Below are positions 4,825 to 10,431 of a DNA stretch of 44,410 nucleotides, one piece after another; the first letter of the stretch is position 1; every line of letters starts with the position of its first letter. The notes below the pieces were generated by a model. It was not told where the DNA came from and did not search any database. It saw only the letters and a list, made by a program, of their open reading frames with translations. Made by a program: the position numbers and the translations under genes. The DNA is taken from the NCBI GenBank assembly GCA_964516705.1, contig CAZEYV010000050.1:1-44410 (forward strand), written 5' to 3'. The DNA is from an uncultured Chthoniobacter sp. GTDB taxonomy: Bacteria; Verrucomicrobiota; Verrucomicrobiia; Chthoniobacterales; JACTMZ01.

Positions 4825-6006
4825 TCAAGGACCCGTCCGGTTTTTGAAGTCGGGGAGCCTTGGGCGGGGGTCGTAATACTGGTGGAAAACCGGCGAGGTG
4901 GCACCGGAGACCGGCGGGACGAGCCACGACCAATCGCCGGGCACGGTCCGTCCCGCGGCTTTCTCGCCGGCCAGATGCTCCATGAATTGGCGCGAGGCCG
5001 CGTGGTGGTCCACGATGGTGACACCGTCCCTCCGGAAGGAATAGAGCACGGCCGTGCAGAGCTCGAGCACCGCGCGGTCCCGCCAAAGGGGGTCCTTGCC
5101 ACGCAGCGCCGGGTCGAGGCGGTCGGCCACCACGGGCAGAAGATGGTAGCGGCCGGGATCGGCAAGGTTGCGCGCGGCGATTTCGGTTTCCATGTAATAT
5201 CCGCTGAAAGGGGCCGCCGGATACGTCACCCCGCCCGCATCGAGTGTCATATTCGACACCGCCGGCAGGGCATGCCAGCGCAGGCCCAGCTCCGCGAACC
5301 ACGGGAAGTCCGGATGTTCCAGCCTCACTTCCAGCACGGCGTCGCGCGGGAGTTCGAAGACCCGGGCTTGGCCCGGCTTTTCCTCGATGATCAAGGGCAG
5401 GAGGTCGAAAGGGGTGCGCCGCGCCGGCGGCTTCCAGCCGAGCGTCATGGCCCGCTCCGTGAAGGCAACCTCGGCGGGATCGCCCGTCACGGTTCCGCCC
5501 GGTCCGCGGTAGCCCGCGTAGCGTGCGAGTTGGTAGTTGGCGATGCGCGGTCCGGGGCGCCCGATTTCGTCCGGGGCGAAGACAGTGATCAAGGGACGGA
5601 TGCGTCCGCCGTTGGTCGACCAGCGCAGGTGCTCGACGCAGGCCTCGAAAATGTCGCCGGCCGATCGCATCCCGCGACGGTCATGCACCGCGAGCGATTC
5701 CCAAAACCGCCGCCCGATGCACCGGCGGTTGTGACGCCACGCCACGCGGCAGGCGTGTTCGAGTTCCTCGCGGGTCTGGGCATAGCAACCCGACCGCGCG
5801 ATTTCGTCCTCCGCCTCCGCCCAGCGCGCGGCATCGGGGACCCGACCGTGCTCCGCGGCGAAAAGTCCGAGGAATTCCTTGGCGGCTTTCCGCCGCGCGG
5901 CCGCATTTTCCGGGGCTCCGCTGTCCGTCTCCTGCCCGGTGGCCGGCCACGTCCGTCCGCTGAAAGGACAGACGGTCCCGGCGGGCGCGGCATCGGGGCG
6001 GGTCAT
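4825..6006 (-). CDS. nos: Nitric oxide synthase oxygenase domain (stand-alone bacterial NOS)
   Basis: AWRHNRRCIGRRFW heme-thiolate motif, STNGGRIRPLITVF, WHALPAVSNM, APFSGYYMETEIAARNLAD, TIVDHH, GDWSWLVPP, SPVFH; start trimmed to ATG 6006. Confidence 0.93.
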   Translation of the reverse strand: MTRPDAAPAGTVCPFSGRTWPATGQETDSGAPENAAARRKAAKEFLGLFAAEHGRVPDAARWAEAEDEIARSGCYAQTREELEHACRVAWRHNRRCIGRRFWESLAVHDRRGMRSAGDIFEACVEHLRWSTNGGRIRPLITVFAPDEIGRPGPRIANYQLARYAGYRGPGGTVTGDPAEVAFTERAMTLGWKPPARRTPFDLLPLIIEEKPGQARVFELPRDAVLEVRLEHPDFPWFAELGLRWHALPAVSNMTLDAGGVTYPAAPFSGYYMETEIAARNLADPGRYHLLPVVADRLDPALRGKDPLWRDRAVLELCTAVLYSFRRDGVTIVDHHAASRQFMEHLAGEKAAGRTVPGDWSWLVPPVSGATSPVFHQYYDPRPRLPDFKNRTGP

Positions 6007-8236: not shown

Positions 8237-8306
8237 GGCCGCCCCGGGGCCCGGCAGCATCCTGCTTCCCCCTGCGGCGGCGGGTCTGATAGTGTCGGCA
8301 ACCCTC

Positions 8307-8903
8307 ATGGCTGAAGTCGCCGAAGAACAAGAGATCAATGACGCCGATCTCGTGGCCCGCACGCAGGACGGCGACCCGCGGGCCTTCGACGACTTGGTGC
8401 GCAAATACAGTCCGCGCCTTTACGGTTTGGTCTACAACATGACGTCCAACCACGAGGACACCAACGACCTGTTGCAGGACATTTTCTCCAAGGCCTACCG
8501 GTCGATCCGCGGTTTCAAGGGCAAGTCGAGCTTCTACACCTGGCTGCACACCATCGCCACGAACATGACGATCAACTTCCTGAAAAAGCGGTCCCGCACC
8601 CGCGGCCTGAGTCTGGATGATGTGGACAACGGGATCCATCACGACCCGGATTTCATCGAAATGACCTCGGGGCCGGATGCAAGGCGAGAGGTCAATCTCA
8701 AAGAACTGCAGACAAGATTGAACGAGGCGATGATGAAGCTGTCGAATGAACACAGAGCCGTGGTCACCATGTTCGACATCCAAGGCATGCCGCATGCCGA
8801 AATCGGAAAAATCCTGGGGATTTCCGAAGGGACGGTGCGTTCCCGTCTCTTTTACGCCCACCGCCAGCTGCAAAACCACCTGCAGGAGTTTTTGGTCCCT
8901 TAG
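8307..8903 (+). CDS. ECF RNA polymerase sigma factor (RpoE-like)
   Basis: DADLVARTQDGDPRAFDDLV, DLLQDIFSKAY, FKGKSSFYTWLHTIATN, EIGKILGISEGTVRSRLFYA. Confidence 0.93.
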   Translation: MAEVAEEQEINDADLVARTQDGDPRAFDDLVRKYSPRLYGLVYNMTSNHEDTNDLLQDIFSKAYRSIRGFKGKSSFYTWLHTIATNMTINFLKKRSRTRGLSLDDVDNGIHHDPDFIEMTSGPDARREVNLKELQTRLNEAMMKLSNEHRAVVTMFDIQGMPHAEIGKILGISEGTVRSRLFYAHRQLQNHLQEFLVP

Positions 8904-8906
8904 CCT

Positions 8907-9329
8907 ATGAATAGCGACGTCCACAAATTGCTGCGCCTCAAGCGCTACGAGCATCCCACTCCCGATTATTTCGAGCGCTTCATCGACGAATTCCACGACC
9001 GCCAGCGGTCCGAATTGCTCCGCCAACCGGCTTGGAAACTTGCGTGGGAAAGGCTCGTCGATTCCCTGCCCGACATCCGGGTTCCGCGTCTGGCCTACGC
9101 CGCGGTCGGCGTGGCCGCCGTTGCGGTTTCCGCCGTCATTCTCGTCAGCCAACAGGACCAAGGTCTGCCCGGCACGGCGCTCGCGCTCAACGACCCGCGT
9201 CCGATGGTCAATGTCCTGCCGCCCGGTCGCGGCGATGTTCGCCTGCCTGTTTCCTCGCGTTCCGATTTCCCGCCGCATTACGTTCTCGAGGCCCGGCCGG
9301 TGAGCTATGAGTCGCCTTACAGTTTTTAG
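8907..9329 (+). CDS. Putative single-pass membrane anti-sigma factor
   Basis: Starts 3 nt after the ECF gene; charged N-terminal domain, one TM helix (LAYAAVGVAAVAVSAVILV), C-terminal tail ending YSF; the role is inferred from context. Confidence 0.7.
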   Translation: MNSDVHKLLRLKRYEHPTPDYFERFIDEFHDRQRSELLRQPAWKLAWERLVDSLPDIRVPRLAYAAVGVAAVAVSAVILVSQQDQGLPGTALALNDPRPMVNVLPPGRGDVRLPVSSRSDFPPHYVLEARPVSYESPYSF

Positions 9330-10350
9330 TCTTTGCGCCGCGCTGGCTGGCGCGGTGCAGGTGAGTCCCGCCGGAGCCAATCCGGCGGGACTGCCGCAGT
9401 CACCCGTTCTCGATGGGGACACGATGGGCGATGCCATCGAGACGACGGTGGGCAAAGTGTTCCGCGGCAGCACGGACGCCGTGGTCCGGGTCGAGTCCGG
9501 CGACGAGCTGGGCAAGGTGGCCGGCACCGGATTTTTCATCGACGCCACCGGGCATCTCTACACGCTTTCTTCGGTCGTCGGGGACGGATTGAGCATCAAC
9601 GTCACGCAAGGCGGCCGGTCGATGTCCGCCCGCCTGCTGGCCAAAGATCCGCGCAGCGGCATCGCCCTGCTCAAGGTCGATGACGCCGGCGGCGCCACAC
9701 CTTACCTGGCCACGGGCGATTGCCGGTCGCTCCGGGCGGCCTCACCGCTGGTCGTCGTCGGGTTCCCCTTCGACCACGAGGTCACCCCGAGTTTCGGCCT
9801 GGTCGGCGGTTTCGACCGCCAGTCGAAAGGAAGATTTTTCACCACCACGCACATCCGTGCGAACATCCCCGTGCAGCGCGGACAGGCCGGCAGCCCCGCG
9901 CTCAATCTCGACGGCGAAGTGGTCGGCGTGCTGGTCAGCGGTTTTGAAGAAGGTTCCGGCTGCTACGTCTTGCCCATCCGCGCCGCCGAGAAGGTGCGTG
10001 CCGACCATGCGCGTTTCGGCGAGGTACGCCACGGGTGGGCCGGTGTGACCGTGCAGGAAATTCCCGAACCGGTGCAGGGCTCGCGCATGGCCATCGACAT
10101 GGTCGACCCCTCGGGCCCGGCCGCCGCGCAGTTCCGTCCGGGGGATGTCATACTGCAGGTCGGCGATATCGCCGTGCGCGAACCCGAGGACGCCCTCGAT
10201 GCCTCCTTTTTCCTCACCGCAGGCGATCCCGTGGATGTGAAAGTGTCGCGCGCGGGCGAAGTGCTCACCCTGCCGTTCGTCGCGGGCGAACACCCCGCCG
10301 GCCGCAAGCCGAACTTCCAGGCTCTCGGACCCGGCAGTCTCGCGCCGTAG
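9307..10350 (+). CDS. HtrA/DegP-like trypsin + PDZ protein, predicted catalytically inactive
   Basis: Signal-like N-terminus, AGTGFFID, YTLSSVV, DPRSGIALLK, VQRGQAGSPALNLDGEVVGV, PDZ RHGWAGVTV...GPAAAQFRPGDVILQV. Confidence 0.88.
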   Translation: MSRLTVFSLCAALAGAVQVSPAGANPAGLPQSPVLDGDTMGDAIETTVGKVFRGSTDAVVRVESGDELGKVAGTGFFIDATGHLYTLSSVVGDGLSINVTQGGRSMSARLLAKDPRSGIALLKVDDAGGATPYLATGDCRSLRAASPLVVVGFPFDHEVTPSFGLVGGFDRQSKGRFFTTTHIRANIPVQRGQAGSPALNLDGEVVGVLVSGFEEGSGCYVLPIRAAEKVRADHARFGEVRHGWAGVTVQEIPEPVQGSRMAIDMVDPSGPAAAQFRPGDVILQVGDIAVREPEDALDASFFLTAGDPVDVKVSRAGEVLTLPFVAGEHPAGRKPNFQALGPGSLAP

Positions 10351-10431
10351 GCGCGAAGCGAATCGGGGGAACGGGCGTATCCCTGCCTGCCGGGCAGTAT
10401 TCGTGAGTCGAGAGCCTTCCGAGGCTTGGCC

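Follow-up and report, generated by a model that had tools for sequence, protein, structure and literature searches.

What is understood of envelope-stress signalling through extracytoplasmic function (ECF) sigma factors comes chiefly from Proteobacteria, in which an active HtrA protease (DegS or AlgW) that reads the C-termini of outer-membrane proteins is accompanied by an unrelated protein (RseB or MucB) that shields the anti-sigma factor. HtrA genes can lie in the sigma operon itself, as mucD does in Pseudomonas aeruginosa, and the MucD protein of Xanthomonas and Stenotrophomonas is an active protease with two PDZ domains. For the Verrucomicrobiota we know of almost no characterised stress signalling. 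In the Escherichia coli sigma-E pathway the PDZ domain of an HtrA-family protein reads C-terminal aromatic-x-Phe motifs (PMC8103513), and in P. aeruginosa the AlgW PDZ domain recognises the C-terminal end of MucE or that of outer-membrane proteins that are mislocalised (PMC8545111). Here we analyse a stretch of 44,410 nucleotides (the window; contig CAZEYV010000050.1) from an uncultured Chthoniobacter sp., a freshwater verrucomicrobium, in which positions 8307-10350 hold three co-oriented genes, recognised from their open reading frames and Pfam matches: an ECF sigma factor, a single-pass membrane protein and an HtrA-like protein. As far as its sequence tells, the HtrA homologue retains the protease fold and a PDZ domain and would be unable to cut. 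The reading that we favour, with about even confidence, is that this pseudo-protease clamps the tail of an anti-sigma factor and thereby controls anti-sigma proteolysis, so that the three genes would form an envelope-signalling module; sequence comparison supports well that the three-gene arrangement is a conserved genetic design across a phylum.

The HtrA-like protein (347 amino acids, 9307-10350, forward strand, as are all operon features below) matches Pfam Trypsin_2 at residues 73-208 (E 4.8e-19) and PDZ_2 at 260-322 (E 3.8e-09), within a trypsin-like domain at residues 59-237 (9481-10017) and a PDZ domain at residues 241-325 (10027-10281). Each residue of the catalytic triad is replaced: His by Ser89 (9571-9573), Asp by Gly118 (9658-9660) and Ser by Ala194 (9886-9888). 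Aligned by phmmer with 22kg_A, a DegP-like chain of solved structure (E 2.1e-29), the protein has 'ytlssvv' opposite 'ltnnhvv', 'prsgiallk' opposite 'prsdvavlk' and 'rgqagsp' opposite 'pgnaggp', and RHGWAGV (241-247) aligns with 'srGWlGV', leaving the carboxylate-binding loop of the PDZ domain intact; W244 and G246 of this loop are invariant in 38/38 orthologues. Three paralogues in the same genome have TN[AV]HV, D-L-A and GNSGG at the same alignment columns, so the organism has ordinary HtrA proteases too, and two of these active paralogues are proteins of 475-506 amino acids with two PDZ domains each. The original prediction, made from the letters of this stretch, had described both the three-gene operon and the HtrA-like protein with substituted triad motifs (TLSSVV, GIALLK, GQAGS) and an intact PDZ loop; the genes lie where it placed them, and the motif readings hold against 22kg_A as well as against the paralogues.

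The overall fold appears to be kept. An AlphaFold2 (AF2) model of the HtrA-like protein has a mean predicted local distance difference test value (pLDDT) of 88.5 and a predicted template modelling score (pTM) of 0.82, and its best Foldseek matches are client-bound DegP (8f0a) and further DegQ and DegP structures (template modelling score TMq 0.72-0.74, E 1e-24 to 1e-25), with DegS less close (TMq 0.61-0.65). The cut-offs of the NCBIfam models for active families are not reached (degP_htrA_DO, 108.6 bits against 416.2; DegS TIGR02038, 63.7 against 422.95). Given the replaced triad, the protein is a homologue and not an active member of the HtrA/DegP-DegQ-DegS (S1C) proteases, and it is not a site-1 protease of the DegS/AlgW type. 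Its N-terminus is hydrophobic and signal-peptide-like, and by eye, with low pLDDT at residues 1-23, it looks like a cleavable signal peptide and not an anchor.

The same design recurs throughout the order. We searched 60 related genomes, 30 of the genus and 30 of other families in the order, and fetched 55 loci. Full-length HtrA-like orthologues occur in 27/30 genomes of the genus at 63-97% identity; two of the remaining three carry copies cut at contig ends and one (60% complete) has paralogue-level matches only. Among the other families, orthologues at 38-49% identity were found in 25/30 genomes and one at 31% in a further genome; the four genomes of the order in which none was found measure 0.9 Mb in two cases and 1.7-1.8 Mb in the other two. 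The sequence of genes from sigma factor to membrane protein to HtrA-like protein is kept in 53/55 loci, the exceptions being a locus cut by a contig end (L035) and one without a sigma match (L042). At the triad columns His is found in 0/55 loci, Asp in 0/55 (Gly in all 55) and Ser in two, both from one genus, and the membrane protein ends in Phe in 54/54 loci. The small genomes of the order are where the pseudo-HtrA is missing. In G042 (1.8 Mb, locus L075) the sigma gene persists, as does a membrane protein whose last residues are ...KTF, and no HtrA-like gene adjoins them; the membrane-protein profile matches nothing in G039 or G053 (0.9 Mb each), and G056 belongs to the same small-genome group.

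All three genes are under purifying selection. Ratios of nonsynonymous to synonymous substitution rates (dN/dS; medians among 14 genus loci) are 0.073 for the sigma gene, 0.165 for the whole membrane protein and 0.208 for the whole HtrA-like protein, and within the last they are 0.175 for the protease-like domain, 0.149 for the PDZ domain and 0.61 for the signal peptide. In the membrane protein the ratio is 0.36 in the linker and 0.044 in the tail (residues 121-140). Decay of the HtrA-like gene into a pseudogene is ruled out by intact frames in 55/55 loci together with dN/dS of 0.1-0.3. The membrane-protein and HtrA-like genes overlap by 23 nucleotides, a tight coupling that is kept across the genus and also in several further families, and we asked whether constraint from this overlap could account for the conserved tail; it is ruled out by the terminal Phe that is retained where the overlap is absent or only 4-5 nucleotides long (L044, L050, L051, L060). 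In these respects the original prediction fared well, since the loss of the triad, the aromatic C-terminus, the synteny and the selection on all three genes, down to the tail, are each seen across the orthologues.

The membrane protein (140 amino acids, 8907-9329) is most likely an anti-sigma factor, judging from its position and topology. Its AF2 model, built with 38 orthologues and only moderate in quality (pLDDT 69.6, pTM 0.25), has helices at residues 3-13, 21-39 and 42-53, a membrane helix at 61-83 (9087-9155; hydrophobic also in the orthologue alignment) and then coil to the C-terminus (PPHYVLEARPVSYESPYSF). The periplasmic part consists of a disordered linker of about 37 residues and a conserved tail of 20 (residues 121-140, DFPPHYVLEARPVSYESPYSF, 9267-9326) that ends in ...SYESPYSF, is coil in the model when free, and is the predicted ligand of the pseudo-protease. 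The protein has 659 homologues, those listed being 138-143 amino acids long, and among 120 listed relatives the segment P122-F140 is invariant in 10/10 sequences. The order-wide consensus of the tail is PPxYVL[DE]xRPVSY[DE]xP[FY][SR]F; in the preceding linker sequence and length are both free to vary, and the YVL[DE]xRP block, which lies some 13 residues before the C-terminus, is conserved as strongly as the C-terminal end itself. The most widely conserved part of the protein is an N-terminal block, KLLRLKRYExP...F..FHRRQR. An Atlas likeness comparison, to be taken as a lead only, groups the protein with verrucomicrobial hypothetical clusters and with a zf-HC2 anti-sigma cluster at 0.88.

That the 140-residue protein might be no anti-sigma factor at all, the three genes being mere neighbours, would agree with the lack of any known anti-sigma domain in Pfam, NCBIfam and PDB-profile searches: no Pfam or NCBIfam family was found for the protein, its best PDB-profile match has E 1.4, and a Pfam search with 38 members returned no family common to more than 3/38. 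We regard this as very improbable. The sigma gene and the membrane-protein gene stand together in 53/55 loci of the order and in 74/83 related loci, only 3 nucleotides separate the sigma stop from the membrane-protein start, the modelled topology, with a short N-terminal helical domain, is typical of anti-sigma factors, and the N-terminal block that is conserved best occurs in 118/401 genomes of the phylum.

Structure prediction places the conserved tail on the pseudo-protease. The co-fold took the HtrA-like protein from residue 36 to 347 and the membrane protein from 84 to 140, using for each an unpaired alignment of 38 rows, and the score had a median of 0.67 (runs 0.63, 0.70 and 0.67) against 0.00 for the best of three controls, beyond a mark attained by 58/80 solved complexes and 2/110 mismatched pairs. 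The runs share at least 60% of their contacts, and every confident contact made by the partner falls within membrane-protein residues 121-140. On the HtrA-like side the contacts line the dead catalytic cleft (87, 89-90, 115-118, 172-179, 189-195, 210-214) and the PDZ groove (244-250, 293-300). The pairs with the lowest predicted error set L127 against 189-194 and 210-212, and from this contact list Leu127 would sit at the P1 position of an active HtrA. The model thus supports a grip that spans the dead cleft and the PDZ groove, like that on a DegP client, and a two-site grip of this kind would explain why the tail has two conserved blocks at a constant distance; the Foldseek matches include the solved HtrA-peptide complexes 8f0a, 3otp, 3gdv, 7co7 and 6ew9. 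The proposal that the PDZ domain of the pseudo-protease caps the tail therefore survives in part: the tail is predicted to bind (0.67 against 0.00), and the grip includes the dead cleft as well, so that binding by the PDZ domain alone is not what the co-fold returns.

The same predicted binding could serve the opposite purpose, with the pseudo-protease as a positive adaptor that presents the anti-sigma factor to an active HtrA, for example in mixed trimers, or to another protease, and so as an activator of the sigma factor. Active HtrA paralogues do coexist in the genome, and it is by way of the protease domain that HtrA proteins, even degenerate ones, form their assemblies (PMC3194040). We think this role quite unlikely, as no sign of mixed oligomers emerged and as the candidate P1 residue L127, by the predicted contacts, would be hidden inside the dead cleft from an active subunit. 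The periplasmic partners in sigma operons that have been studied, moreover, are negative regulators, RseB among them (PMC8103513).

Under the clamp that we prefer, three co-transcribed parts would work together: an RpoE/AlgU-like sigma factor, an anti-sigma factor with its tail, and a secreted HtrA homologue that does not cut. The YVL(E/D) block would occupy the dead cleft and the C-terminal P-(F/Y)-S-F the PDZ groove, bound and never cleaved. By adding bulk to a small unfolded periplasmic segment and hiding its hydrophobic C-terminus, the clamp would keep active proteases off. Unassembled outer-membrane proteins with exposed aromatic C-termini would compete for the clamp and free the tail, upon which the anti-sigma factor would be degraded and the sigma factor released; the module would in this way report how far such proteins have built up. 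RseP does not admit substrates whose periplasmic domains are bulky and favours a newly made C-terminus that is hydrophobic, and if these preferences hold here, release of the clamp alone might license RseP-type cleavage. The genome encodes several candidate proteases, namely an RseP-type M50 protease with two PDZ domains, the active HtrA proteins with two PDZ domains and three S41 C-terminal proteases; MucB_RseB (PF03888) was not found in this 90%-complete genome. The direction of the shield, the competing signal and the identity of the protease are parts of the scheme that we infer.

A different use of the same complex would be a constitutive one: the tail would stay clamped at all times, and the pseudo-protease would serve as the periplasmic sensor domain of an anti-sigma factor made of two chains, answering to a ligand other than protein C-termini, such as a lipid. 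There are precedents for such ligands: RseB has been proposed to be freed from RseA by lipopolysaccharide and not by peptides (PMC8103513), and AlgW responds to lipid as well as peptide (PMC8545111). The membrane protein, with its short and disordered linker, also has no sensor domain of its own. We nevertheless judge a permanent pair to be distinctly improbable, because the sequence gives no indication of a lipid site and because a grip on the very sites that HtrA proteins use for clients, as the co-fold suggests, would make competition by clients the simplest means of release. A BamA-like Omp85 protein in the genome (G000:C20:24680-25588, reverse strand) ends in ...IGYQF, an aromatic-x-Phe end like that of the membrane-protein tail. 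Mimicry of outer-membrane proteins by the tail was considered and set aside, as only this BamA-like frame of the four checked ends in YQF, which is too few.

The module reaches well beyond the order. The membrane-protein profile matches 118/401 genomes sampled across the phylum, most matches outside the order covering the N-terminal block and the membrane helix. We examined 83 profile-match loci (82 outside the order and that of G042 within it, with the 28 weakest matches left out); the genomes in this set are mutually related, so that the counts are not independent. An ECF sigma gene lies upstream of the membrane-protein gene in 74/83 and an HtrA-like gene directly downstream in 44/83, and a full triad is present in 0/44. 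The membrane proteins beside an HtrA-like gene end in F (19), Y (13), M (11) or N (1), and those at the 39 loci without one end in F (21), Y (5), R (8), E (2) or, once each, Q, N and H. One large outside group is Akkermansia, as named in the source records. Its partner protein is annotated only as 'PDZ domain-containing protein' because the trypsin-like half is too degenerate for Pfam. In the Akkermansia-type module (L078:1395-2823; similar at L079, L083, L087, L088, L094, L096, L099, L101 and L112) a membrane protein of about 180 amino acids ending in VLIEM is followed by a 291-residue PDZ protein, whose N-terminal half aligns weakly to the trypsin-like domain with the motifs lost. A second type within the same membrane-protein family, of about 300 amino acids and ending in ...(L/I)KF, lies downstream of an ECF sigma gene with no HtrA-like gene adjacent (L084, L090, L100, L104, L113, L114, L124 and L126, and further L129, L132, L135, L141, L143, L144, L147 and L153).

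These loci bear on an alternative in which the pseudo-protease is a co-transcribed chaperone only, a periplasmic holdase that belongs to the regulon and makes no contact with the anti-sigma factor, the tail being read by some other PDZ protein. Hydrophobic C-termini persist at 26/39 related loci despite the absence of an adjacent HtrA-like gene, and the genome has other PDZ proteases (RseP, S41 and active HtrA) as possible readers. HtrA genes are found in sigma operons without partnering the anti-sigma factor, as in rpoE-rseA-mucD of Xanthomonas and Stenotrophomonas (PMC4229105), and proteolytically inactive HtrA variants can still protect cells (PMC11642142). On the other side, the co-fold puts the tail in both cleft and PDZ groove where its controls score 0.00, the YVL[DE]xRP block is as conserved as the C-terminal end, which fits a two-site grip of the HtrA type, the genes are tightly coupled through an overlap kept in the genus and in several other families, and 43/44 membrane proteins beside a pseudo-HtrA end in F, Y or M. 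A chaperone role of this kind seems to us unlikely, if the least so of the alternatives.

A search of 1.84 billion cluster representatives with the HtrA-like profile returned 7251 proteins at E <=1e-30. The 128 proteins of at most 520 amino acids among the best 150 of these 7251 were aligned, and in 104 the triad is incomplete, all three residues being absent from 93 of these; a further 18 are fragmentary and gapped at a triad column, and six have His-Asp-Ser, the first at rank 115. From these counts among the best matches, the triad-less clade is large. Seven longer proteins (P0232, P0242, P0256, P0262, P0266, P0271 and P0273; 849-2393 amino acids, and excluded from the triad count by their length above 520) have 3 to 10 stretches that match the pseudo-HtrA profile, which suggests tandem arrays of HtrA-like or PDZ modules. 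It is possible, and we put it forward tentatively, that pseudo-HtrA substrate traps are a widespread sensing element of ECF sigma factors in Verrucomicrobiota, Akkermansia included, with clients competing the trap off its degron. The degron of the anti-sigma factor would then consist of an aliphatic P1-like site about 13 residues before a hydrophobic C-terminus, held uncut by the dead protease, and the released stub, small and unfolded, could then pass into RseP or fall to active HtrA or S41 proteases. If this is true, it would be the first pseudo-protease found to gate the regulated intramembrane proteolysis of an anti-sigma factor, and the switch would gauge free chaperone and protease capacity and not a peptide activator.

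The sigma factor is of the RpoE/AlgU-like kind (ECF, group 4). Its reading frame (8292-8903) is open from a GTG at 8292, and orthologues align from the ATG at 8307, which gives a protein of 198 amino acids (8307-8903). Pfam matches are Sigma70_r2 (E 2.7e-18), Sigma70_r4_2 (E 2.5e-13) and Sigma70_ECF, with region 3 not found. The score against NCBIfam sigma70-ECF is 112 bits for a cut-off of 42.9; that against the RpoE equivalog TIGR02939 (RpoE_Sigma70) is 123.9 for a cut-off of 236.15, and all other NCBIfam equivalogs also stay below theirs. The nearest solved chains are 6in7_B (E 2.3e-27), labelled in the PDB search as RNA polymerase sigma-H factor and which we take to be AlgU bound to MucA, and E. 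coli sigma-E, 1or7_A (E 2.2e-24); Mycobacterium tuberculosis SigE and SigW are further solved relatives. Upstream lies a candidate promoter-like motif, CTTCCC-N15-CTGATAG (8265-8292), and a related motif, TTYCC, 14-17 nucleotides, YTGNTA, recurs 5' of the sigma gene in the genus and in several other families. In whole-genome scans the strict form of the motif has two matches against 0-5 in shuffled sequence and the loose form 13 against 17-28, and without enrichment no regulon can be named; a consensus scan found no sigma-70-type promoter. The leader of the sigma gene is unusually short, with 14 nucleotides from the end of the motif to the ATG and no Shine-Dalgarno-like sequence visible. Three terminator-like sites, against 1.9 expected, all fall within the sigma gene.

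Metatranscriptome contigs from four libraries of three studies match the operon at 95-100% identity. They span the junction of the sigma and membrane-protein genes (8767-8930 and 8847-8928) and that of the membrane-protein and HtrA-like genes (9254-9404 and 9270-9372), with further cover over the 3' portion of the HtrA-like gene (9848-10425). Two stretches of the operon, 8258-8494 and 9601-9758, have no contig cover in the four runs, which with contigs is uninformative. The RNA contigs are consistent with transcription as an operon.

Several observations weigh against the clamp. The anti-sigma identity of the membrane protein has no family support in Pfam or the PDB profiles, and neither a regulon nor the promoter scan ties the sigma factor to envelope genes. 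The RNA contigs could reflect carry-over of DNA. In the co-fold the pLDDT of the partner is low (47-57), which makes the partner's own fold uncertain, the alignments used were our own and unpaired, and, as many HtrA-peptide complexes have been solved, the passing score may reflect the likeness of the families and not the specific pair. Mean entropy at the predicted interface is 1.47 against 1.69 elsewhere, only slightly stronger conservation, and 758 of 10000 random sets gave a value as low. The mutual information that tail positions -1 to -3 share with columns of the HtrA-like protein (38 rows) does not single out the PDZ domain; it mainly reflects the division of the genus from the other loci, so that covariation is inseparable from phylogeny. 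Lastly, the F or Y ends at 26 of the 39 loci without an adjacent HtrA-like gene, G042 of the order included, make another reader of the C-terminus possible.

The surroundings of the operon in the source metagenome-assembled genome (2.27 Mb, 199 contigs, 90% complete, about 64% G+C) are unrelated housekeeping genes upstream, a fabF-like gene and a PNP-family phosphorylase, and a convergent accA downstream. About 2 kb upstream of the operon lies a full-length gene for a bacterial nitric-oxide synthase oxygenase domain (4825-6006, reverse strand; Pfam NO_synthase, E 6.7e-134).

In the literature we found no description of a triad-less HtrA protein paired with an anti-sigma factor, nor of such a system in Verrucomicrobiota. 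The main text of a re-classification of ECF sigma factors (PMC7826278) contains none of the terms Verrucomicrobia, trypsin, HtrA, PDZ, DegP and serine protease; its supplements, which hold the group descriptions, may list an ECF group with this neighbourhood. Were the clamp real, it would stand as a plain example from nature of a pseudo-enzyme that has kept its grip on substrate for signalling, it would offer a testable model of how envelope damage is sensed in Verrucomicrobiota, including the gut commensal Akkermansia, and it would flag as non-catalytic a large family whose members at present bear the annotation 'serine protease' or 'PDZ domain-containing protein'.

Compared with described systems, the locus resembles the sigma-E/RseA/RseB/DegS/RseP pathway of E. 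coli in having an RpoE-like sigma factor, a presumed single-pass anti-sigma factor and, in the genome, an RseP-type site-2 protease. It differs from that pathway in that the HtrA protein of the operon has no triad and that the YxF-type end is on the anti-sigma factor itself and not on outer-membrane proteins. The membrane protein matches no RseA family, and the pseudo-protease is unrelated in fold to RseB, of which the genome has no homologue, so that any likeness to RseB would be functional only. The AlgU/MucA/MucB system of P. aeruginosa is near in its sigma factor, 6in7_B being the closest chain; AlgW and MucD, however, are active proteases, and MucE is a separate small activator and not the tail of an anti-sigma factor. 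In cell-surface signalling a TonB-dependent transducer likewise shields the periplasmic part of the anti-sigma factor until a signal arrives (PMC11637429), but the shield there is a domain of an outer-membrane receptor and the anti-sigma factor is of the FecR type; no match to a TonB-dependent receptor was found in the present genome. MamO of magnetotactic bacteria is likewise an HtrA-family protein repurposed without protease activity (PMC4794232), in that case for metal binding in biomineralisation and with no link to a sigma factor, and the NCBIfam MamO score of our protein is 28.9 against 800. The rpoE-rseA-mucD operon of Xanthomonas and Stenotrophomonas has the identical order of sigma factor, anti-sigma factor and HtrA-family gene (PMC4229105), whereas the HtrA-like protein here has one PDZ domain and three replaced triad residues, and no clamp on a tail is known from those bacteria. 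The predicted grip itself resembles the binding of clients by DegP and DegQ, which likewise engages the active-site cleft and the PDZ groove with one peptide. Kim, Grant and Sauer are said to have put forward in 2011 a two-degron, or two-site, model of client binding for DegP. What would set the verrucomicrobial pair apart is that the enzyme is dead and that its client would be a single, dedicated signalling protein encoded beside it.

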